From assembly GCA_963795855.1 (NCBI GenBank), contig CAWCIZ010000001.1:288001-352000 (forward strand): a stretch of 64,000 nt of DNA, in the 5' to 3' direction. This document shows, piece by piece, positions 33,068 to 45,451 of this stretch (its first letter is position 1; the number at the start of each line of letters is the position of its first letter). Under the pieces are notes generated by a model. That model saw only the letters and a list, made by a program, of their open reading frames with translations. It was not told the origin of the DNA and did no database searches. A program made the translations under genes and the position numbers. The stretch comes from Vulcanimicrobiota bacterium. Lineage in GTDB: Bacteria > Vulcanimicrobiota > Vulcanimicrobiia > Vulcanimicrobiales > Vulcanimicrobiaceae.

Positions 33068-34449
33068 ATCGTCGTAAAGGTTTTCAGCGTGGCTTGCGAA
33101 CTTACTGCTTGCCCGAGCGCGCGTTGTGAAAGCGCCAAGCCGTAGAGCGCGCGCGGATCGTTCGGGTAGCGCGTCAGCGCAGCTTCGAACGCAGTTTGCG
33201 CTTGGTCGTAGCGCTTTTGCCGGTAGTAGAACGCGCCCAGCGCCTCTGCCGCGGGAAATACCGGCAACTGTTCGGCGCCGTCTTCGCGCTGCTGATAGGC
33301 GATCGCGCGCGTAAGCGCGTCAACGGCGGCATCGGTTCGCCCATCGTGCTCGTCGATCGCCGCTGCGAGCAGCCACCGGTAATCGCCATCGATGTTTCCG
33401 TATAGCGCCAGCATTTTGCGAGCATCGTCCATCACGCCGAAATGCACGTCGGTCAATCCTCGCGCGAGCGGAGCGTAGAACTCATTCGTCGCGCCCGACG
33501 AAGCGATGCGCTGCCACTGTCCAAAGCGCGCCCAGGTTGCCCACAGATCGCTGCCTTCGTATTCATGACCGACGCGCGCGGCCCACGCTTCCGCAACGTG
33601 CAGATCTCCGAGCATCAGCGCGTTCGTCCATCCGGTGTACGCGTCGTGCGCGCCGTAATGCAGTTTGAACGGCCGATCGGTTTGCGCGTTCCATTGCTCG
33701 CGCAGGCGCCAGGCGGTCTCGCTTACCGCCAGGGCCTTCGCGTACTCGCCGACTTCCGTATACGTGTGCGCGGGCATATGCGCGAGGTGCTCTTCGGCGG
33801 GATCGAGCGTCCATGTTGCCACGCGATCTGCGCACACAAGTGCGGGACCGCGGTCTGCCGCGTAATCGTACGCGTGCATGCACAAGTGATTGGCGAATAC
33901 GTGGTTTGGATCGCGAGCCAGGACACGTGTGATAATTGCGACCGCATCGGCATCGGGATGTTCGACACCGCTGTGCTCGAGCAGCGCCTCGGCATCCAAC
34001 ATGGCCGCATCGTCGTCTTGCGGATAGGCCGACACCAGCGCCGCCATCGCCGCGCGGTATTGCGCTTCGGCGCCGTCGTGCTGTTCGTAGATGCCGCCGT
34101 AGCGTTTCGCAGCCGCATCGATGTACGCGCGTTCCTCCGGCGAGGCATAGCGTTGGAGCGAGAGTGCGTGAAGTGCGGCTGCGTGTGCGCGCGCGAAGCG
34201 GGCCGGATCGAGCGGCGTGTTGAGATCGGTACCGTTGGCGAGCGCTTCGCCCCAAGCCGCGATCGCGAGGTGCGGGTCATGGCGCAGCGCCGCCTGAAAC
34301 GCGAGGTTCGCCGCATCGCCGTCGTAGGTGTACAGCAGCGTAAGGCCGCGATCGAACGCCGCTTGCGCTTGCGCATCGCGCGTCGTTACCGGATGATGAG
34401 CGCTCGGGGTGAAAGCGAGCGCGGCTGCCAGGGCGAGGGCGGCTATCAC
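33028..34449 (-). CDS. Secreted TPR-containing protein
   Basis: Signal peptide from the GTG at 34449, AQAAFDRGL, H.FANH..MHA, HLAHMPAHTY and C-terminal TPRs. Confidence 0.8.
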   Translation of the reverse strand: MIAALALAAALAFTPSAHHPVTTRDAQAQAAFDRGLTLLYTYDGDAANLAFQAALRHDPHLAIAAWGEALANGTDLNTPLDPARFARAHAAALHALSLQRYASPEERAYIDAAAKRYGGIYEQHDGAEAQYRAAMAALVSAYPQDDDAAMLDAEALLEHSGVEHPDADAVAIITRVLARDPNHVFANHLCMHAYDYAADRGPALVCADRVATWTLDPAEEHLAHMPAHTYTEVGEYAKALAVSETAWRLREQWNAQTDRPFKLHYGAHDAYTGWTNALMLGDLHVAEAWAARVGHEYEGSDLWATWARFGQWQRIASSGATNEFYAPLARGLTDVHFGVMDDARKMLALYGNIDGDYRWLLAAAIDEHDGRTDAAVDALTRAIAYQQREDGAEQLPVFPAAEALGAFYYRQKRYDQAQTAFEAALTRYPNDPRALYGLALSQRALGQAVSSQATLKTFTTIWTQPTPPDLGNL

Positions 34450-35558
34450 GCCGCTTTCTTCTTGCGTCCCTTCAACGATTGCTTCAATTGGCGAACGGTT
34501 CGTGAACTGTCGGTTTCCTTCGCTCGCTCGCGCAGCAGGGCAAGAACGAATACCTCGTCCGGAAGCAGTCCGTCGGTGTGGCGCATCGCTGCCGGTGCAG
34601 AGATGGCGCCGTGTTCGAGATATGCGTCCACAACCTCGGGGTGCACGTAGCATTTGCGGCACACCGCGGGTGTGTTGCCGAGGCGTTGCGCGACGTCTTT
34701 GATGACGTCCGTCAACCGCTGCTTGCGCTCGGTTTGCGTCTCCGCTGCTTCCAGCTGCGCGAGCAGCGATGCGCAGGTTACGGTACCCAACCACGTGCGA
34801 AAATCTTTCGCGGAAAATTCTTCGTCCGAAATCGCCCGAATGTAGTCGTTGACGTCCGACGAGTCGATCGCGCGCGTCGCGCCATCGTCGTCGACGTACT
34901 CGAAGAGTTGTTGTCCCGGCAAATCTTGGCATTTGCGAATGATGCGCGCGAGGCGGTTGTCGCGCAAATCGATCGCGTGACGCACGCCGCTCTTTCCGCG
35001 AAACGAGAAGCGTACAGTCGAGCCTTGCACTTTCGCGTGCTTGTTTTGCAGCGTGGTCAGTCCGAAGGAGCCGTTGTCTTTGGCGTATTCGTCGTTGCCG
35101 ACACGAATCGCCGTGCTTTCCAGCAATTGCACCACGGTGGCCAGGACTTTTTCGCGCGGCAGTCCCGCAAGCGCCAAATCCGCTTCGACGCGTTTGCGGA
35201 TCGCCGGAAGCGCTTGCGCGAACGCGATCATGCGCCCGTATTTCGTTTCATCGCGGATTTCACGCCAGCGTTTATGGTAGCGATACTGCTTACGCCCGCG
35301 GGCGTCGCGCCCGGTGGCCTGCAGATGACCGTTCTCAAGCGGACAGATCCACACGTCCGCATAAGCGGGCGGGACCGCCAGCGATTTGATGCGTGCCAGA
35401 TCTTTTTCATCGGTAATTTCTTTGCCGTCCGGGGCAACGTACGCGAAATGCTTTCCGCGCGCGATGCGTTTGATGCCGGGCATCGCATCGCTCACGTAGC
35501 GAAGCCCGGCGGCTTTCGCCGCGGCGACCGGATCCGCGAGCGTTTCAGGAGCGGTCAT
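34446..35558 (-). CDS. DNA topoisomerase IB (bacterial, poxvirus-like)
   Basis: GHLQATGRDARGRKQYRYH, IRVGN, SFGLTT, F.GKSG, KDFRTW and LGNTPAVCRKCYVHP (catalytic Tyr). Confidence 0.95.
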   Translation of the reverse strand: MTAPETLADPVAAAKAAGLRYVSDAMPGIKRIARGKHFAYVAPDGKEITDEKDLARIKSLAVPPAYADVWICPLENGHLQATGRDARGRKQYRYHKRWREIRDETKYGRMIAFAQALPAIRKRVEADLALAGLPREKVLATVVQLLESTAIRVGNDEYAKDNGSFGLTTLQNKHAKVQGSTVRFSFRGKSGVRHAIDLRDNRLARIIRKCQDLPGQQLFEYVDDDGATRAIDSSDVNDYIRAISDEEFSAKDFRTWLGTVTCASLLAQLEAAETQTERKQRLTDVIKDVAQRLGNTPAVCRKCYVHPEVVDAYLEHGAISAPAAMRHTDGLLPDEVFVLALLRERAKETDSSRTVRQLKQSLKGRKKKAA

Positions 35559-36392: not shown

Positions 36393-36469
36393 GGCGCTGT
36401 AGCTCAGTTGGTTAGAGCGCCGCCCTGTCACGGCGGAGGTCGAGGGTTCGAGCCCCTTCAGCGTCGCCA
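36393..36469 (+). tRNA. tRNA-Asp(GTC)
   Basis: GGCGCTGTAGCTCAGTTGGTTAGAGCG-CCGCC-CTGTCAC-GGCGG-AGGTCGAGGGTTCGAGCCCCTTCAGCGTCGCCA. Confidence 0.97.
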
Positions 36470-36499
36470 TTTTTTCGGACCTCCAACAAGGTTCCGCAA

Positions 36500-36533
36500 A
36501 CGAAGAAGCCCCGTAAACACGAGGCTTTTTCGT
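36500..36533. terminator. Hairpin terminator after tRNA-Asp
   Basis: ACGAAGAAGCCCCGT-AAAC-ACGAGGCTTTTTCGT. Confidence 0.7.
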
Positions 36534-36618
36534 CTTTTACGGGGCCACGCGCTAAGGCCCGCGAGATGGGAGTATGCCTTTTTGCTGACTACAAAGAACG
36601 ACATAGAATCGCCGGCGC

Positions 36619-36855
36619 TCACGAGTGAAATGCAACAATCAACAGCACCACTACGGCAGCGAGGACTACCGCGCCGCCGATTACCGTAGACAGCACGACC
36701 ATGCCACCGCCGATAAAGCGTATCGCCGGCACACTCGGGTAAAAACGGGACGACTTCAGCCAACCCTCGGCATGGCGTCCAAGCAGAACGATGAACAAAC
36801 CGACGAGCACCCAAAAGCCGCAAATGAAAACTGCGAGCAGCATCATCGGATTCAT
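36619..36855 (-). CDS. Small membrane protein (78 aa)
   Basis: Two strongly hydrophobic segments; lies inside the first repeat-bounded unit. Confidence 0.55.
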   Translation of the reverse strand: MNPMMLLAVFICGFWVLVGLFIVLLGRHAEGWLKSSRFYPSVPAIRFIGGGMVVLSTVIGGAVVLAAVVVLLIVAFHS

Positions 36856-37128
36856 TAGGCTTGCGCGTCATCTTGAGGCGCAGGTAGTAATTCCGATAAC
36901 TTTTCGGCTTCTATGCTGGCCCTCTCGATCGCCTTCGGATCTCAGCTATTACTTTCGCGTACTGACTAATCTCCTCGTCCTCGATGCTCTCAGCGGCACC
37001 GCTCGCCTACACGTCAAAGGAGTAGCCTTTGCGAATGCGGTTTCAAAATCTCCTAAGCGATACGTGAAGTCTGTTTCGGAGAGCGTTACATTCTTTAGTG
37101 GTTGCGTCACCAAGTTGCCTTCTTGTGT

Positions 37129-37603
37129 TTATTGACGGTGTGTGAAGGCTTCCGTAGGCGAAACATCGAGCCCGCGTGAGTTCACCCAGTGAACAACGTC
37201 GGCGCCGTCTTGCAAATTGTAGGCCGTGCACTCTGAAATACAATGGAACGAGTGGACGCGCCGCGCCGGTAAGTAGACATAATCACCGGCGTGCAAAGTG
37301 ACGGGTGCTTCTCCTTTGAATTGATGCGACCCGTATCCGCTTATGAGGATTAGCTGCGTATTTGCGGCGTGCCAGTGTGGTGGAATCATGCATCCCGATG
37401 CTATTTTGGCAATCTCCACGGAAGCGCCTCGGCGCGGATCCCCTTCCACCATGGCGACGCGCACGCACGGCGGCAAGAACGGCACTTTAACGAAGCGGGC
37501 GCTTTGGAGTGAAGAGACGTGGGCTGCGGGAGGCTTCTGCGGCCGCCACTCCCGACACCGCAATGATGCCGAGGAGGAGAAACACATATATGGTCGGTCT
37601 CAT
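37129..37603 (-). CDS. Secreted cupin-domain protein (DUF4437-like), frameshift near 37505
   Basis: AGGAGG RBS, then signal peptide MRPTIYVFLLLGIIAVSGVAAA; continues in another frame with GDP..G, IPPHWH...ISG and L.AGDYVYLPA...H. Confidence 0.75.
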
Positions 37604-37642
37604 GACGAACCTCCTAATCGTGTGTTCCGGCTAGGGTTCCGT

Positions 37643-37691
37643 CGCCCTGTCACGGCGGAGGTCGAGGGTTCGAGCCCCTTCAGCGTCGCCA
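37643..37691 (+). repeat. Direct repeat of the tRNA-Asp 3' 49 bp (att-like), copy 2
   Basis: Identical to 36421-36469. Confidence 0.97.
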
Positions 37692-37696
37692 TTTAA

Positions 37697-37732
37697 AAAG
37701 AAGCCTCGGTGCATATGCGCTGGGGCTTCTTT
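37697..37732. terminator. Hairpin terminator after repeat copy 2
   Basis: AAAGAAGCCTCGGTGC-ATAT-GCGCTGGGGCTTCTTT. Confidence 0.75.
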
Positions 37733-37733
37733 G

Positions 37734-38249
37734 TTATTTCGCAGCGGCCGGATCGCTGAGCAATTTGCCCGCTCCAACAGCTGCCGAAAGAACGTTTCGA
37801 ACTCCGGATCCAATGCTTGCGCTCGACCGCATTTTCAAAGATTGCTTGTGCGATCGGCATGCGCGCAACCGGCGCGAACGCCGATACCCAAGTGCGCCAG
37901 CGGTGATCGTCCACTGAGCGACCGTTTGCGTAAGAAATAGATGTCCTGCAAGCCGTCAATCCCATTGCGAACGAACATCATTGATTGCAGGTACTCGGGG
38001 TCGTGGTAAGCGCAACTCGCCGATTGTGGGATCGCCGGAGAGATATTCCTTCAACGCTATCGGGCGATCAGTGAGTTGAGCCCGTATATCGTAGATGCGC
38101 TGCACCATGGCGTTTTGAATCTCCATAGTGGCCGCCCTATGCGCCGCATCCGCCTGACGCTTCACTTGAAGTGCTTGCGTGCGAGTATAAACCAACGAAA
38201 TGATGCCGACGCCTATGCCGGACAACCCGAAGACAATGCCCAGGTCCAT
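37734..38249 (-). pseudogene. Hypothetical protein with N-terminal TM helix (several frameshifts)
   Basis: Pieces in successive frames: MDLGIVFGLSGIGVGIISLVYTRTQ.../YHDPEYLQSMMFVRNGIDGLQDIYFLRK/DDHRWRTWVSAF.../LDPEFETFFRQLL. Probable stop at about 37734, next to the hairpin. Confidence 0.55.
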
Positions 38250-38281
38250 TTGATCGGCCCGCTTTCAACGCGTTAGCGGCG

Positions 38282-38330
38282 CGCCCTGTCACGGCGGAGG
38301 TCGAGGGTTCGAGCCCCTTCAGCATCGCCA
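38282..38330 (+). repeat. Direct repeat of the tRNA-Asp 3' 49 bp (att-like), copy 3
   Basis: Matches 36421-36469 with one mismatch (AGCATCGCCA versus AGCGTCGCCA). Confidence 0.97.
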
Positions 38331-38367
38331 TTTTTCCCCTAGAGTTCTGACCTCCGGGGGGCATAGA

Positions 38368-38395
38368 GAAAAGCCCTGATTTGTCGGGGCTTTTC
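38368..38395. terminator. Hairpin after repeat copy 3
   Basis: GAAAAGCCCTGA-TTTG-TCGGGGCTTTTC. Confidence 0.7.
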
Positions 38396-38920
38396 GCGTC
38401 CTCTGGATACGGCTACAAGGCTGCACGTATGTGGTTCGCATGGACGCCTGACGAGGCACAGCGCTTGCCGATTACGCCGCGCACCTGATGTCGACGGGGA
38501 GAGGCTGCTTCTTGCCGATTAGCATGTCGGTGAACACGATTGATCAGCGGTGCTTGCTCTCTGAGTTCTGATCGCGTTTCCCTCGATGGAATACGAGCGA
38601 TTGCGTATGAGCAAGGCATTGTGCGCCGTGTTGGCACAATGCCAAGGTGGGATGAAGCGCCTTTCTGGTATTGATGCCCGCCTGGAAAAGCGAAGGGCGG
38701 GGATGCGGACATTCGCTGGACTAGGGTGAATTAACCACCGCTGCGAGGCATTGGCGCGCGGCAGATAGCGTACGCGGTGTCGCGACCGCAATAACATGAA
38801 CTCTAACAACGACGTCTTTGAATCGTTCCAGCGGCGGCGCATAGCATTTATGCGTGACTGGCGATGCGGAAGTGACGAGAAGCCGCGCAGCCCTACGATA
38901 TATGTTATAGTGAGCCGCGC

Positions 38921-39185
38921 TTGGACGTGTGCCCCTGTTGCGCATATCCGACTCTGCTCACGTCTCGCCAGTCAACGCACGCGTGTGAGCTGCGACGGCT
39001 GGTGCGATGATGGACAGGACGATCCTCGCTATCGAATAAGACCCGATTACTATGGCGCAGACGAGACAGCCGGGGTTCCCGACTGCGGTCCCAACTACAA
39101 TTACTCGCTGACGGAAGCGCGCCTGAACTTTTCGCGTTATCAGCAGAAGTACCGTCGCAACGACGATCATTTTGATCGCTACTAG
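38921..39185 (+). pseudogene. CPCC cysteine-rich family protein, disrupted
   Basis: VCPCCAYPTL...CEL, then in another frame WCDDGQDDP...GPNYNYSLTEARLNF. Confidence 0.65.
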
Positions 39186-40192
39186 CTGATGAAAGAGTGA
39201 GGACGGCACTGATCGCCGCATTCGATTCCCGACCGCCATCGGTCGAACCACAACGCTACATTTCGGCGTTGCCGAAGATCAATGCGATCTTTGGCAGCGC
39301 TCTACGAAGCGCCTCGGGGAAAGCCGTATCTGGGCGGCCAGAAGACGAAGGAATGATACGAGGCGCACAGAAGGCCAGAGCCGCGCGAGACGGGCTCTTC
39401 TGGCGCAGGCTGTACGAGAAGGCGGGCATCGACCCAAGCAGCGGGGCGATTAAGAAGCAGGTCAGCCGTTAGTTATTCTCGTCACCCCGTCCGGTTCTGT
39501 TCTTTTCGGGCTGGATTCGCCCCCCCCAGATAGTAGGCCGCACACGAAATGCAGCGTGATGCGAATGTCAGCGCCGTCCACAGCGAGCGCATCAAACGGT
39601 CATCCTCGACTGCGTCGATCGACGATGCGCCCTCAAAAAACAAATAGGGACGTCGTAATTCTACGAGTCGAGAAATTGAGCGATTCTGCTGGAACCTCTT
39701 CGATAGAACGCTCTCTCAGTGCATAGCGCTCGATACGATCCGCTTTGCGCCACAGACCGCGGTCTTGTTCTGTCAAACCGCGGTAATCCACATGTGGAAC
39801 AGAGGCTGTTTCTTCATCGCGTGGGTATGCGCGAACGAAATGACTCAGCCTGTCAGGGGTGGCTATCAGGGGAGCGACGGCGTATGTTAAGTCCAGCGTT
39901 GTAGCCACTACGGCGTAGGCGCTTTCTGCGTTCCATGAGCCAGCGGTTCGCAGACATCGTTTCGCCGCGACGGAATATCCCAGAGCGGCATAGCGTCTAT
40001 GTGAAAGCCTGTGCTAGAGTCGCACTGCGAAGCCAAGAGCGACGATGGCACCTAGTCGATAGAAAAGCGTATTTCACTTTCGGTCACGGACTTTCTGCCC
40101 AAAGCCAGGAGTCTTCAAAGTGTGCTTTATGCCAACGCGGGCAATGAATCGGCATTTAAAACAAGTCGATGTTCTGCGCCGTGGTTTCTTCC

Positions 40193-40512
40193 TCACTCCT
40201 TGGGGACGAACGTCTGGAAATCTATGCCGCCGATTTTACCACTTGGATCGAAGGCAATGTGCTCGATAACCCTGCCGTTTCGGAACGTTATGGCAAATAC
40301 GTAACCGGTCGCGTCAGTTCCGCGCTTGTCACCGCGTCGAGTTGCGAGCGATCGACGTTTCCGGTTTGAAAGCGGTAGAACCACTCTTTGGCGAGCGCGA
40401 TGATGAACGGCTGAACCGGCCCCGTCGTGGCAGCCGGCGCGCTATCTTGAGCAAAGGCTGGAACGGTGCAAGCCGCAACGGCAATCAAGACCGCGTAGCA
40501 TAACTTAAGCAT
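40193..40512 (-). pseudogene. Small secreted protein, frameshifted or internally deleted
   Basis: Signal peptide MLKLCYAVLIAVAAC...AQ and LAKEWFYRFQTGNVDRSQL; the C-terminus GYVFAITF...FDPSGKIGGIDF is in a second frame. Confidence 0.55.
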
Positions 40513-40577
40513 GAAATTAAGTACTAAACGGGTTGCGAGCGGCCTGAGATTTTGCGGCTGCATCTGCCTGAACCCGC

Positions 40578-41285
40578 CTAGTGCGCGAACCACGCGAAGT
40601 ACGGGTCACCTAAGAGTATAGCCGAGCTCGGCCGGATTTGCTTTGGTTTGTTTGGTGGTGCGAACGTCACGATGCGCGGGCCGGTTGGAAGAGCGTTTGT
40701 TACAACGTCAAGGATCCAGCTCGCAGCATCGGATCCACCCTCGCCGGCCGGGACCGATATGCGATCGATCGAGGCCGCGCGAACTTCAGATGTCGGGTGC
40801 GGCACGCTCGACCATAGCGCGTAATACCGAGCTCCGAGATACGCGTAGCGACCGCCGGTGCGCACCGGGACGAAGACGATCGGAACCGCCATACATCCCT
40901 TTTCAGCAAGCACGACGAACGCAACGACGTAAGGCAGGCGCGATCCGGCCTTCGGTACGATTGTAAGGTTTGTGGCGGCGCCGCATCCGTCGCCGGGACC
41001 ATCGACCGGCGCGTACGCGTGACCGGCGGCTAAAAACGGCGTAAGCGAAAGCACCTGCGGCGTCATGCCAGGCGCGGACACGCGCACGTATGCCGGCCCG
41101 AGCGCCGTGGCTTTGTATCGTTGGCCCGTCTCGTCGGGATGCTGCCAGCGCAGTTCGGCGGTCCAGTGCAGCGTCGCCCGCACGTCGTCGTACGTCTTGG
41201 TGGTAACGTGATGCGACGTCGAGATCAACGGTCCCAGCGTGAGCGAACAAGCCAAGAGCAGCGTCGACGAAATCGCCTGCGCCAT
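40578..41285 (-). CDS. Hypothetical secreted protein
   Basis: 235-aa ORF with signal-like N-terminus; TAAGAT -10-like element 6 nt before the ATG. Confidence 0.6.
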   Translation of the reverse strand: MAQAISSTLLLACSLTLGPLISTSHHVTTKTYDDVRATLHWTAELRWQHPDETGQRYKATALGPAYVRVSAPGMTPQVLSLTPFLAAGHAYAPVDGPGDGCGAATNLTIVPKAGSRLPYVVAFVVLAEKGCMAVPIVFVPVRTGGRYAYLGARYYALWSSVPHPTSEVRAASIDRISVPAGEGGSDAASWILDVVTNALPTGPRIVTFAPPNKPKQIRPSSAILLGDPYFAWFAH

Positions 41286-41313
41286 GCGCCTATCTTACCA
41301 TGCCGCTGATGCG

Positions 41314-42077
41314 TCAGGCGACGTCGGTCGTGCCGAGCTGCCGGATTCTTTTCAGCGTTTGGGCGGTTAGAGCGATGCTGTTTGCGATCTCTTCCGCTTG
41401 CGAGAGTTCTGCCAGCGCCGCTTCGTGCGCTTCACGGCATTTCGCGACGTGTATCTGCGCGTCGCGAGTCAAGACGCCCGCCAAGGCGGCGCGCTTTACG
41501 GCCTCCGTTGCGCGCGATTCAGTTTCAAGCAGTTTCGCCTTCGAGAGAGCCACGACGTCCTGCGCTTGGGCTAACCGCGCTTGCAGTTCTTTGACGGAGG
41601 CCTCCGCCGCGGTGAGTTCCTGTCGGACCGAAGCGACCTCGCCTTCCACCTTCGTTTGATAGGCTGCCGCTTTTTCGCTATTTCGAGCGTAGGCCGAAGC
41701 TTCGGCAGTCGCGGTTCGCTCGGCTTCGGCGGCTTGGGCCGCTGCTGCGCGTTTCTCGTCGAGCTTCAGGTTCTCACTCAACGAGCGTGCCTGTGCAGCC
41801 TCCTTCGCGAGCATTTCCTCGATGTGGCGCGCGTTTGCCAGCAGCTGTTCCAGCCTCTTGCGGTGTGCCTCCAGCTCTCCGCGCGCTGCGCCGGTAACGG
41901 GCGGTTCGGCGGAAATCGGCGCTGCCCCGGCGGTTTCGGCAAAATGAATCTGCTCGATCTCGCAAGGCTGATCGTTTTCCCGCTCGCTGATGTGAACTCC
42001 GTGAGCACCTCGTCGAGGTCCGGAGCCGAATCGTTTCCTAGACGTGACGAGCGGGAGCCGAACGCGCGGCTCACCAT
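41314..42077 (-). CDS. Ala/Glu-rich coiled-coil protein (frameshifted)
   Basis: Heptad-rich C-terminal ORF 41314-41814; the N-terminal part is in another frame. Confidence 0.55.
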
Positions 42078-42282
42078 GCCCCGTAAGGAGGTATCTTCAA
42101 TATTTCGCTTAGGGTGCAAGGCCGTAATTGCACCTCCGTTGCCGTGGTTCGAAAGACTCCCCCTCCAAGGATAATCGGCAGAACCGGCGGCCATTGTAGG
42201 CACAGGCCTCTTCCCACGGCCGAGCCCGTGACTTTCCCCACGCAGCGCCGCAGAAGCGCCTTGCCGCGGGGCCTAAAGGCCG

Positions 42283-42663
42283 CTATGAGGTGCTATAGGT
42301 GACGCCGCTGGCATGAATATGTACGTTGACGGCAGCGCAGATCGGGATCTTTCCGCCGCTGATCACGGCACCGTTCGAGAACACCGCTTTTACATCGTAC
42401 AGTTTGTAATCACGCGTATCGCTCGACATGTCGACGACCGTATTTTCGCCCGAGTACAGAACATGGTCGCCGAGGACGTCGTCTTCCCAGCTCCCGGCTG
42501 CGGTGGGCGCAACGTACAACTGTTCGATAGCGGTATCGGTGTCGTTAAAGACCCGGAACGATTTCGTGCATGCGCCGGCCGGTGCGACTGACACCGCGAT
42601 AGCGGTCCCGAGAAATGCTAAAGCCAGCATGAACGCGGCAATACGCCGCAATAGAAAAGCCAT
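42283..42663 (-). CDS. Small secreted protein
   Basis: AAAGGA RBS, signal peptide, F.V.N.T...I.QLYVAP.....W..DVLG...YDVKAVF..G pattern. Confidence 0.75.
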   Translation of the reverse strand: MAFLLRRIAAFMLALAFLGTAIAVSVAPAGACTKSFRVFNDTDTAIEQLYVAPTAAGSWEDDVLGDHVLYSGENTVVDMSSDTRDYKLYDVKAVFSNGAVISGGKIPICAAVNVHIHASGVTYSTS

Positions 42664-43196
42664 GATAACACGGTCCTTTCGAATGATTGCCTGCCCGCCG
42701 CATCACTATAGCCGGATGTCTGCTGAATTACCATAGGGCGGAAAGCCCACGGAGTAGTAAGCACGCCAGGATGCGCCGCAACACCGAGGCCCTACGGCCG
42801 AACGGCATCCTAAGGTAAACCGAAAGCGTCGCTCCTATATCACCTTTCGGCGGGCCATCGCGTTGCGTATGCAGCGCACCGGCAAATGCCCGCTGCCTTT
42901 TTGTGCAGGAACGCCGACTGAAATTCGCTCTTGCAAATGGCGCGCAAGGATTCGGCGCCGGCGACGCTTGGTGCGCGTGCGACTTCACCGCCGCAAAGCA
43001 CGCCACGGGCCGTTCGTTACAGGTCGCGGAGGCGAAGCATGGCCAGTTCGGATACGGCTGGCTATACGTTTTCGGCCTCGCCGTAGCAGTCGCGGTTACC
43101 AGCGCTAGCAGATGCAGCATTCAACACCTCCCGGCCATGCAGTGCTCGAAACAAGAATAGGGTACGCAAGGCGTTCGTGACAAATGACGCCGGTCG

Positions 43197-43586
43197 TCAC
43201 GTTCGATTATGCCGGCGCAGGAAGTCGCCGAGGCGCGTCCGTTCGCCCGGCGGATACGTCAGCTGGAGTCCGCAGATCAAGCCGTCGTCGGAAAGCTTCA
43301 CCGACATGGTATGGTCCAGCACGAATTCTTCACCGTCGAGTTGCAGAACGTCGATGAAGCGAATGTCCAGCGGCGCGTTCGGGTCGATTTCGTGGCGAAA
43401 CTCGACTGAGTCGAAAACGTTGCGTCCCTTCTCCGATGCGGCGCGAAACGATTCGACGATTTGGTCCGAGCCGATGATGATTTTCTCGCTTGTGTCGTAC
43501 TGCGCACGCTCCGCTAGGCACGCCGCGGCCGCGACGTAGTCGTCGTCGTCGAGCGCTTGGGCGAAGCGGTGCACGATGCGGCACAT
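43197..43586 (-). CDS. SnoaL/NTF2-like protein
   Basis: VHRFAQALDDDDY....ACLAE.A.Y......G...IV.SF pattern. Confidence 0.6.
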   Translation of the reverse strand: MCRIVHRFAQALDDDDYVAAAACLAERAQYDTSEKIIIGSDQIVESFRAASEKGRNVFDSVEFRHEIDPNAPLDIRFIDVLQLDGEEFVLDHTMSVKLSDDGLICGLQLTYPPGERTRLGDFLRRHNRT

Positions 43587-43703
43587 ACCATGGCTTGGTC
43601 GCCCGCTTGCTTGCCGAATCCTTGTGGGATTCGCCCTGATAAGCGCTATAATAGTAACCTAAGTTACTATTTACTGCGCATATCGCACGCAGGGAGGTTT
43701 TCC

Positions 43704-44075
43704 ATGCAGAGCCTTGATCAACGCGCTCAACACCTCAGTTTCGCCACACCCGAAGAAGTACGCGAGTTTCCGAACGGAAAGGCGGAGATCATCATCATCG
43801 GCGGTTCGGAAATCGGCCGATATACGTTTCGCCCGGGCTGGCGCTGGTCGGTCGACGTAAAGCCAATCGCCAAAACCGACAGTTGCCAAGTCCCGCACAT
43901 GCAATACCATCTGGCCGGACGGGTTGCGATTCAAATGGACGACGGTACGCAGTTCGTCGCAAACCCCGGCGACGTGACGTCACTCCCGAGCGGACACGAC
44001 GCGTGGGTCATCGGTGACGAGCCGGCCGTGACTATCGACTGGTTCGGCGCCAGCACGTACGCAAAAAAGCAGTAG
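43704..44075 (+). CDS. Cupin domain protein
   Basis: GGGAGG RBS; PGWRWS..VKPIA.T.SCQ.PH and PGD...LP.GHDAWV. Confidence 0.88.
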   Translation: MQSLDQRAQHLSFATPEEVREFPNGKAEIIIIGGSEIGRYTFRPGWRWSVDVKPIAKTDSCQVPHMQYHLAGRVAIQMDDGTQFVANPGDVTSLPSGHDAWVIGDEPAVTIDWFGASTYAKKQ

Positions 44076-44087
44076 GGTAACGCGAAC

Positions 44088-44729
44088 GTGAAACCTCGCA
44101 TCTTCGGCACGGCGTTGCCGGTGCTGTTGCTTATCAGCGCTCCGGCCGCCGCGCAAGTCGCCTCGCCCAACGCGTTCGTCTACAACATGAAGTTGAGTTC
44201 GGGACAACGCGGCATGGACATTTCGCTGGCCTTTACGGTTACTGCGACGGATAGCGACGGCAACCGAAAGGCCGTCGCCGTCGTGAGAGCGCCGAAAATG
44301 GTGCCGCTGGACGGCAAGAAATTCGATGTGACCGTCGATCGCGCAGGCGTCATTACCGTCGGAAGTACGGGAACATTCACGACCGGCGGTGCGGCCGAAG
44401 CGAAGGCGAACAGCGCCGCCGCGATCGGGCCGCTGCTGCAAATGATGATTAATCCGCTCAACGTGTTCGCCGCGGGCTGTGCCGCGGCGCCGTCGCAAAA
44501 AGTCGGCACGACGTGGCATGCGTATTCGAGCGCAGTGATGACGGACGTCGTGTTCACGATCACGGGGCGCGAACAGCAAGGCGGTCACAACACGATCGCC
44601 GTCACAATGTCGTCGCCGGGATCCGGGGCAAGTGTGACGGGGAAAGGTAATTACGACCCGGCCGCGCGTGTCGTCGTGAACGTACATTCGGAAGTGCGCC
44701 AAGCCGCAGGCGCGCGCGAACTGAAGTGA
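44088..44729 (+). CDS. Hypothetical secreted protein
   Basis: Signal peptide followed by a beta-rich domain. Confidence 0.65.
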   Translation: MKPRIFGTALPVLLLISAPAAAQVASPNAFVYNMKLSSGQRGMDISLAFTVTATDSDGNRKAVAVVRAPKMVPLDGKKFDVTVDRAGVITVGSTGTFTTGGAAEAKANSAAAIGPLLQMMINPLNVFAAGCAAAPSQKVGTTWHAYSSAVMTDVVFTITGREQQGGHNTIAVTMSSPGSGASVTGKGNYDPAARVVVNVHSEVRQAAGARELK

Positions 44730-44793
44730 TGGACGCCGCACTCGCAAGTCCGTAACGCCGTCACGATCGGAGTTGCTGCGCTGTTATTCGCAT

Positions 44794-45048
44794 ATGAACG
44801 CAGCATCGAACGGTCGTGTTCTTCGCATCGCGTTTGCCGCTTCACTCGCGGTGCATTTGATCGTCGCGGCGGTGTTGTATTCGCGCCCGGTTACGGCGGC
44901 TCCCGAACAAATTCCGGAGCACATGCACGTGTACAAGTTGCAACTTCCGCCGCCGACGCCTACTCCGCCGCCGCCGAAGCCCGCGCTGCCGCATCCACAG
45001 CGCAAGAGCACCGCCGTGCTGCCGGCGATACATCGCGTGCGATTGTCA
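44794..45048 (+). pseudogene. TonB-like N-terminal fragment
   Basis: TM anchor SLAVHL (SxxxH) and Pro-rich linker. No C-terminal TonB domain; the frame runs into the antisense of csaA. Confidence 0.5.
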
Positions 45049-45387
45049 GTACAGGCGCGCGCCGTTCGTGACGTTTTGATCCGGGCGAACGAGAACGACG
45101 GCGCCGTTCGCATCGGGAACGCCCAACACGAGGACGTCGCTGGAAAAGCCCGCAATTCTGCGCGGCGGAAAGTTGACGATCGCCAGCACTTGCTTGTCCA
45201 CTAAATCCGCGAGCGCATAGTGCGCCGTAATTTGCGCGCTCGACCGTTTCACGCCGATCTCGCTTCCGAAGTCGATCGTCAGTTTGTATGCGGGTTTGCG
45301 CGCTTGCGGAAATGGCTCCGCTGCAACGATAGTGCCGGTGCGCACGTCGAGGGCGGCGAAGGCGTCCAAAGACGAGATTTGACTCAC
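45046..45387 (-). CDS. csaA: tRNA-binding/chaperone CsaA family protein
   Basis: F..LDVR.GTI, ARKPAYKL.IDFG..IG.K.SSAQIT.HY, VNFPPR.IAGF.S.VL.LG. Confidence 0.92.
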   Translation of the reverse strand: MSQISSLDAFAALDVRTGTIVAAEPFPQARKPAYKLTIDFGSEIGVKRSSAQITAHYALADLVDKQVLAIVNFPPRRIAGFSSDVLVLGVPDANGAVVLVRPDQNVTNGARLY

Positions 45388-45451
45388 GATGCCGCCTGTT
45401 GGCGCGGCAAGGGGACGACGCCTGCGCAGAGAATCCAAGGCGGTCGCCCGT

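Follow-up and report, generated by a model that had tools for sequence, protein, structure and literature searches.

How can short DNA units accumulate behind a tRNA gene, each closed by a copy of the 3' half of that gene, when no recombinase accompanies them? This question is raised by a tandem array found in the window, i.e. the whole stretch of 64,000 nucleotides analysed here, which comes from a 3.06-Mb genome of the Vulcanimicrobiota that is 86% complete (G000). The array was compared with the tRNA-Asp loci of related genomes.

The tRNA-Asp gene and its 3'-half repeats

The target of the array is a tRNA-Asp(GTC) gene, preceded by a tRNA-Val gene (ARAGORN; Table 1). The source of both repeats is the segment 36421-36469, which corresponds to nucleotides 29 to 77 of the tRNA and runs from the anticodon stem to the CCA end. 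The start-to-start distances between the three copies are 1222 and 639 nucleotides, TTT directly follows all three and a hairpin is present 3' of each. The tRNA was used as query with BLASTN against the whole genome. Only the two 3'-half copies already known were recovered, with E-values of 8e-22 and 2e-19, whereas the next matches were of 21 nucleotides at most; a chance origin of the repeats is therefore excluded. The repeats and the unit sizes of 1222 and 639 bp reported in the first-pass annotation, which had also proposed this genome-wide search, are thus real.

Among the ten bases that precede repeat 3 (38272-38281), five are in register with nucleotides 19-23 of the tRNA, and this repeat may once have been longer. 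The T-stem of tRNA-Asp varies among eight genomes of the same genus, with three main variants (window 36421-36469; L031, L046, L047, L049, L068, L085 and L086). The tRNA-Asp repeats nearly always match the T-stem variant of their own host, with the exception of G158. Integrating elements that exchange the 3' halves of tRNAs could account for this variation.

Table 1. Features of the tRNA-Asp array and of the adjoining interval (positions in the window).
Feature	Position	Strand	Remarks
tRNA-Asp(GTC), intact target gene	36393..36469	+	ARAGORN, Rfam RF00005
Unit 1 body	36470..37642	.	1222 bp including repeat; GC 0.56 (contig 0.62); no arm-type repeats detected
Terminator-like hairpin, left end of unit 1	36506..36527	-	
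78-aa hydrophobic ORF, doubtful	36619..36855	-	Found in 1 of 251 genomes (own only)
Cupin_2 gene, likely signal peptide	37129..37603	-	One frame change near start; start 37603 read from sequence
Repeat 2, tRNA-Asp nt 29-77, displaced 3' half, attR core	37643..37691	+	49/49 identical
16-pair hairpin, left end of unit 2	37697..37732	.	
Gene of unnamed family of ~170 aa, probable pseudogene	37788..38249	-	Three indels relative to best homologue (72% nt)
Repeat 3, tRNA-Asp nt 29-77	38282..38330	+	48/49, one mismatch
Left-end remnant of integrase element	38331..38394	+	85% over 65 nt with left end of the 4.1-kb tRNA-Asp element of G057
Older, repeat-free part of variable Asp-Phe interval	38395..45451	.	

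Gene content of the two units

All three genes of units 1 and 2 face tRNA-Asp. The hairpin that begins unit 1 has matches of 25-33 nucleotides, at 94-96%, located after tRNA-Thr, tRNA-Glu or 3' repeats of tRNA-Glu in three other genomes. The 78-aa ORF has no homologue in the 250 other genomes, and its Atlas matches are all under 0.9. The start codon of the cupin gene is situated 39 nucleotides from repeat 2, and its single frame change is within the background of the assembly. This gene is present in 5 of the 251 genomes of the family. In G094, which belongs to another genus, it is the sole gene of a 624-bp tRNA-Asp unit, with the same orientation and a similar distance to the repeat. The copies of G000 and G094 are 68% identical, and the alignment of their leaders is no better than that of shuffled sequences (p=0.33). 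A conserved cupin leader was significant in none of 10 pairs once the last 12 nucleotides were removed. As the start codon in G094 is possibly located 6 nucleotides later, the equal distance of 39 nucleotides is weak evidence. Three of the five close copies have no adjoining repeat: one is in a stretch of an Asp-Phe interval that has no repeats, another adjoins tRNA-Ala, and no tRNA is in view around the third. Cupin neighbourhoods were examined for 13 of 16 metagenome loci, and a scan of the genome-contig collection for the cupin found none. The search for a promoter issuing from the repeat gave one sigma-70-like site, which is at chance level.

The type of hairpin found at the start of unit 2 follows tRNA-Asp in none of 30 empty loci, 8 of 52 filled loci and 7 of 37 unresolved loci. 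The start codon of the unit-2 gene is 32 nucleotides from repeat 3. We observe three indels in 463 nucleotides, against a rough background of 0.58 frame changes per kb in the assembly (23 in 39.5 kb; Poisson ~0.003). Because the indels exceed this rough background, the gene is probably a pseudogene, albeit in an indel-rich assembly. Homologues were detected in 22 of 301 genomes, its own included. Neither a tRNA-Asp repeat nor an integrase match occurs in the 19 homologue loci examined, where one copy lies between two tRNA-Val genes and another near a weak 27-nt match to tRNA-Gln. The nearest Atlas cluster of this family comes mostly from Vulcanimicrobiota, and a 158-nt soil contig spans positions 37829-37965 with 14 differences and one gap. 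The four sequencing runs listed contain only 0.05 of the words searched and are made up of contigs from other organisms, with no joint reported.

The variable region extends past position 38395, for about 9 kb, to the tRNA-Phe gene (45452), the Asp-Phe gap being of 8982 nucleotides. Within it, the ORF 40578-41285 is the gene that a 933-bp unit of G097 carries between its repeats.

Tyrosine integrases in the genome and in its relatives

Tyrosine integrases often cross over at the anticodon loop of tRNA genes. The profile PF00589 has no match in the window, and integrase and transposase families were detected neither from the 23 ORFs around the array (E<=0.1) nor from 143 of the 154 window ORFs of at least 135 aa (E<=1e-12). 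Nine of the other 11 ORFs were scanned otherwise, and two overlapping shadow ORFs were dropped. These profile scans uphold the earlier statement that neither the units nor the rest of the window contain a recognisable integrase or transposase. A tblastn search with integrase pieces from the genome itself and from six relatives revealed no integrase remnant in units 1 and 2 at E<=1e-3 among the matches listed.

Elsewhere in G000, nine matches to PF00589 are located at C1:701k, C3:113k (beside tRNA-SeC), C5:13k (near tRNA-Ala) and C3:841-877k, and the nearest one on the same contig is at approximately 375 kb from the array. The first-pass annotation had suggested a search of the genome for a tyrosine integrase tied to tRNA-Asp. 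The best match of G000 to the tRNA-Asp integrase has an E-value of 5e-4, and this genome, which is 86% complete, yielded no close homologue. The large serine recombinase (PF07508) and the reverse transcriptase (PF00078) profiles have no match in G000, and the integrase scan of the viral-contig collection found none.

The segment C3:840215-877383 of G000 is a cluster of tyrosine recombinases, some of them adjacent and frameshifted, and has no link to tRNA-Asp. In the window, a bacterial topoisomerase IB gene (34446-35558) adjoins a DUF488 gene about 0.8 kb upstream of tRNA-Asp. The fold of topoisomerase IB is related to that of tyrosine recombinases. Of 29 loci of relatives, 10 likewise have such a gene close to the tRNA pair, and nothing connects the gene to the repeats.

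Integrases do occur at this site in relatives. G057 displays a 4.1-kb repeat-bounded unit with an intact PF00589 integrase of 426 aa and an AAA_25 gene. Homologues of this integrase exist in 6 of the 251 genomes of the family, G057 counted. In G237, one of them (72%) comes immediately after tRNA-Asp, and another (44%) is found in G197 beside a repeat with the same limits as in the window (nucleotides 29-77); the remaining homologues are at tRNA-Val or tRNA-Ser. Broken integrases are included in units of G019, G020, G032 and G033. The genome of G037 (98% complete) has four repeats and a single PF00589 match genome-wide.

The tRNA-Asp locus as an integration hotspot

The distance between tRNA-Asp and tRNA-Phe is below 140 nucleotides in 30 of the 82 loci with both tRNAs in view, and these correspond to empty sites. 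In the remainder, the gap ranges from 0.43 to 12 kb. In 13 of 122 oriented loci, the window's included, one or more 3'-half repeats were detected (E<=1e-6, weaker matches not being counted), and two of these loci have four repeats; a few of the 122 loci share one genome, and related genomes are not independent. Excluded from this set are ten loci in which no tRNA-Asp could be called and nine others that were off-target, duplicates or continuations. The unpublished genomes G036, G043, G050 and G063 count in the search tallies alone. Three more contigs without tRNA each contain two repeats. Additional pattern matches in G096, G163 and G164 were rejected as repeats, as they correspond to whole tRNA-Asp loci.

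The well-preserved repeats of relatives begin at approximately nucleotides 27-35 of the tRNA, around the anticodon loop, which indicates a site-specific crossover at this loop. In relatives, tRNA-Asp is followed by integrase-less units of 0.35-5 kb, by elements that bear an integrase or by fragments of an integrase, or the site is empty; this gene is an integration hotspot in the lineage. Units with a single gene are found in several genera (624, 933, 655 and 957 bp). The orientation of the genes is mixed, those of G150 and G001 pointing the opposite way. The number and the content of the units vary between relatives in a comparison of one genome per species; the content at tRNA-Asp is thus not invariant across this comparison, empty sites among them, in agreement with the variation foreseen in the first-pass annotation.

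The cargo of several units is found elsewhere without repeats, in or near the Asp-Phe region. This is the case of the cupin in L176, of the gene of G097 in the window, of the gene of G150 in G017, of the genes of G103 in G004, G007 and G123, and of the gene of G001 in G002. Such repeat-free cargo fits a loss of old repeats, and also a capture of island genes at secondary sites. In G001 (L085:1-234), the upstream leader of tRNA-Asp and at least the first 49 nucleotides of the gene occur a second time behind it, at a contig end; this structure is a whole-gene duplication or an assembly break.

Arm-type repeats and graded remnants

Arm-type repeats were searched in 28 units, as words common to both ends and as tandem 7-mers, with 60 shuffles (floor p=0.016), a procedure that degenerate or non-tandem arms would escape. 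All four integrase-bearing units have tandem repeats at the right end. In G057, G019 and G020, words of 13-14 nucleotides are common to both ends (p=0.016, the floor), and the fourth has different words at each end. Words of 14-15 nucleotides are also present at both ends of two integrase-less units, in G037 (2063 bp, L040:9226-11288) and in G033 (1642 bp, L041:231-1872). The arm repeats at the two ends of a tRNA-Glu unit of G085 (1421 bp, L227:1497-2917), equally integrase-less, are weaker. For units 1 and 2, the longest common words are of 7 and 8 nucleotides (p=0.74 and 0.59) and tandem 7-mers occur at neither end in this test, which misses degenerate arms. Neither sign was detected in the small units of G094, G097, G150, G158, G103 and G089; G157 has one left-end 7-mer and G001 an 11-nt word (p=0.033). 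The units of G037, G033 and G085 are better candidates for mobilisation in trans than those of the window.

G002 preserves 394 nucleotides of the left end of the G057 element (81%), G158 retains this end as a 347-bp unit, and 74 nucleotides of it are left in L176 and 65 in the window, behind repeat 3. In G158, the homology stops within the last codons of the integrase, at a short word common to the core, so that a complete element can be reduced to a unit without arms. The junction with repeat-free copies is 0-1 nucleotide from the repeat in G158 and G150 (1 nucleotide in G150).

Origin of the units

We consider it probable that the locus is an additive tRNA-Asp island, formed by successive integrase elements that were trimmed to a terminator, cargo and core. 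Small tyrosine-integrase elements would cross over in the anticodon loop of tRNA-Asp, each incoming element restoring the tRNA with its own 3' half and terminator and pushing the prior 3' half downstream. The site of the window would have received at least two insertions, unit 2 before unit 1, over an older remnant. The integrase and the arm sites of each element would subsequently have been lost, and what remains would be the 49-nt core, a terminator and one or two cargo genes with their short leader. We infer, by analogy with relatives, that units 1 and 2 once had an integrase, and that it disappeared through deletion at microhomologies or through the action of the integrase at an internal secondary site. 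By themselves the units are probably immobile, and they would move only together with a new element inserted next to them. Among the loci compared, we found no parent element that contains either the cupin or the gene of unit 2, and as no integrase trace was detected either, the decay origin of these two units is based on analogy. Two further observations go against decay: the homology stops 0-1 nucleotide from the repeat in G158 and G150, which random deletion does not predict, and the same cupin fills the 624-bp unit of G094.

These junctions at or next to the repeat edge argue for a gene capture by mobilisation in cis; mobilisation in cis is described in excerpts of PMC5704250 and PMC7563491. 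A helper element would excise with a neighbouring terminator and an island gene by means of a secondary site beyond this gene. The composite would integrate at tRNA-Asp elsewhere and the helper would leave, which would give an arm-less terminator-gene-core structure, the units then being captured host-island DNA. The fact that other genomes have the cargo of arm-less units, free of repeats, within or close to their Asp-Phe region is consistent with this scheme, as is the presence of the unit-2 type of start hairpin after tRNA-Asp in 15 of 89 non-empty or unresolved loci. However, the same overlap of gene pools is expected if old insertions lose their repeats. Moreover, none of the 19 unit-2 homologue loci examined is at tRNA-Asp, the start hairpin of unit 1 is also found behind other tRNAs and their repeats, and no composite intermediate was seen. 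We hold capture to be unlikely.

The first-pass annotation had proposed that a tyrosine integrase crosses over at the anticodon loop and that the units were captured one after another. Both points are supported, and such integrases exist in the family. It had further suggested that the units may be minimal cassettes served by a trans-acting integrase, in the manner of an integron array. They would circularise and integrate at tRNA-Asp through core-only sites, with an integrase encoded elsewhere or passing through. The recurrence of single-gene units in several genera, the occupation of a tRNA-Asp unit by one cupin family in two genera, the four repeats of G037 for one PF00589 match and the integrase-less units with both arms in G037 and G033 (weaker in G085) all point in this direction. 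This proposal is nevertheless unsupported for units 1 and 2, and we judge it quite unlikely: these units have no detected arms, the search of G000 gave no close homologue of the tRNA-Asp integrase, the unit-2 gene looks decayed and the remnants of one integrase element in relatives form a graded decay series. In addition, the two cupin copies are only 68% identical with leaders that do not align beyond shuffles, three of the five close copies are without repeat, gene orientation is mixed and no attC-like boxes were found. The annotation had itself named, as an observation against the proposal, the occurrence of the same genes inside large integrase-bearing islands of relatives. This was not found, and the cassette idea is weakened rather than excluded. 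A further scheme seems unlikely: an integrase acting at secondary sites would make arm-less cassettes of a single transcription unit, composed of a terminator, a gene, a short leader and the tRNA 3' half, and passing core-only integrases would reinsert them at tRNA-Asp, thereby recycling a pool of island genes in an integron-like tRNA system.

A non-integrase origin is very improbable, whether through an assembly artefact, a local duplication or the copying into DNA of transcripts primed at the ends of tRNAs. The many frame changes of the assembly, the inclusion of the tRNA 5' half in the duplication of G001 and the orientation of the three window genes towards the tRNA, as expected for transcript copies, could be advanced in its favour. 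Nevertheless, a single base distinguishes the two repeats, whose flanks are unique, the well-preserved repeats of relatives start around the anticodon loop, the genome has no match to PF00078 and the genes of two relatives face the other way.

Comparison with known systems

The arrangement itself and its route of decay are already described in other bacteria, as excerpts of PMC4898812, PMC7771536, PMC10872708, PMC5704250, PMC7563491 and PMC3146451 indicate. Additive flexible islands anchored at tRNAs, with cassettes that end in a partial tRNA repeat, are reported in excerpts on Alteromonas (PMC4898812), Ca. Actinomarinales (PMC7771536) and Ca. Methylopumilus (PMC10872708). In the latter, cassettes range from 330 bp to 42 kb and from 1 to 63 genes, and PMC7771536, which names tRNA-Asp as one of the tRNAs concerned, reports such islands from genomes that contain hardly any mobile elements. 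The locus of the window is likewise fixed behind a tRNA, empty in some relatives, marked by partial tRNA repeats and variable in number and content of units. It differs by its lineage and by the integrase-bearing relatives and arm repeats identifiable here, and the near-identical cross-species cassettes of Alteromonas were not found (68-84% at best).

The CIMEs and microCIMEs described in excerpts of PMC5704250 and PMC7563491 decay to recombinase-less elements and accrete in tandem, with sizes of 1.2-13 kb for classical CIMEs and of 130-220 bp for microCIMEs. Units 1 and 2 share with them the lack of recombination or transfer genes and the stacking at one target. However, CIMEs keep attL and attR whereas these units keep the core, their arms not being detected by a test that degenerate arms would escape, and no ICE or IME parent was identified for them; the units of G037 and G033, with both arms, fit the definition better. 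The islands of Dehalococcoides (excerpts of PMC3146451) are tandem at ssrA and bounded by a 3' repeat, and 15 of them have no integration module, but they involve a serine recombinase and a tmRNA target. For the tycheposon islands of Prochlorococcus, likewise in tandem and bounded by a 3' repeat of the target gene, in which partial tRNAs and remnants are seen as older insertions (excerpts of 10.1101/2020.12.28.424599), the difference is that the units of the window are far smaller and devoid of replication genes. The units also differ from an intact tyrosine-integrase island at a tRNA, which has its own integrase.

Integrons are composed of an adjacent integrase and of attC sites that delimit short units, each with one or two genes of like orientation and a start codon close to the recombination site. 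The short units and the position of the start codon are shared by the array of the window. In contrast, this array has no adjacent integrase, and what is repeated in it is half of a tRNA gene with a terminator behind it. No pair of attC-like boxes RYYYAAC...GTTRRRY 40-130 nucleotides apart was found on either strand of 36401-38450, and Rfam matches only tRNAs over the array.

Among the papers listed, our literature search found no report of tRNA-anchored additive islands in this soil lineage (Eremiobacterota). The value of the locus resides in a comparative series at one site, composed of an intact element, broken integrases, units with both arms, arm-less units and a bare left end, which makes the origin of integrase-less tRNA cassettes testable. 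If arm-less units do excise with an integrase in trans, this would explain the turnover of islands in genomes without resident mobile elements.

Repeats at other tRNA genes

In G197, we have detected three 3' repeats of tRNA-Glu (L219:10881-17171) and two 3' halves of tRNA-Val, 887 bp apart, beside an integrase (L221:6649-7582); tandem units thus occur also at other tRNAs in the family. In G000, a 28-nt 3' repeat of tRNA-Glu (C3:656219-656246) is located 3.5 kb behind its gene, and a 39-nt copy of the 5' part of tRNA-Val (C3:686290-686327) is located 3.9 kb in front of its gene.
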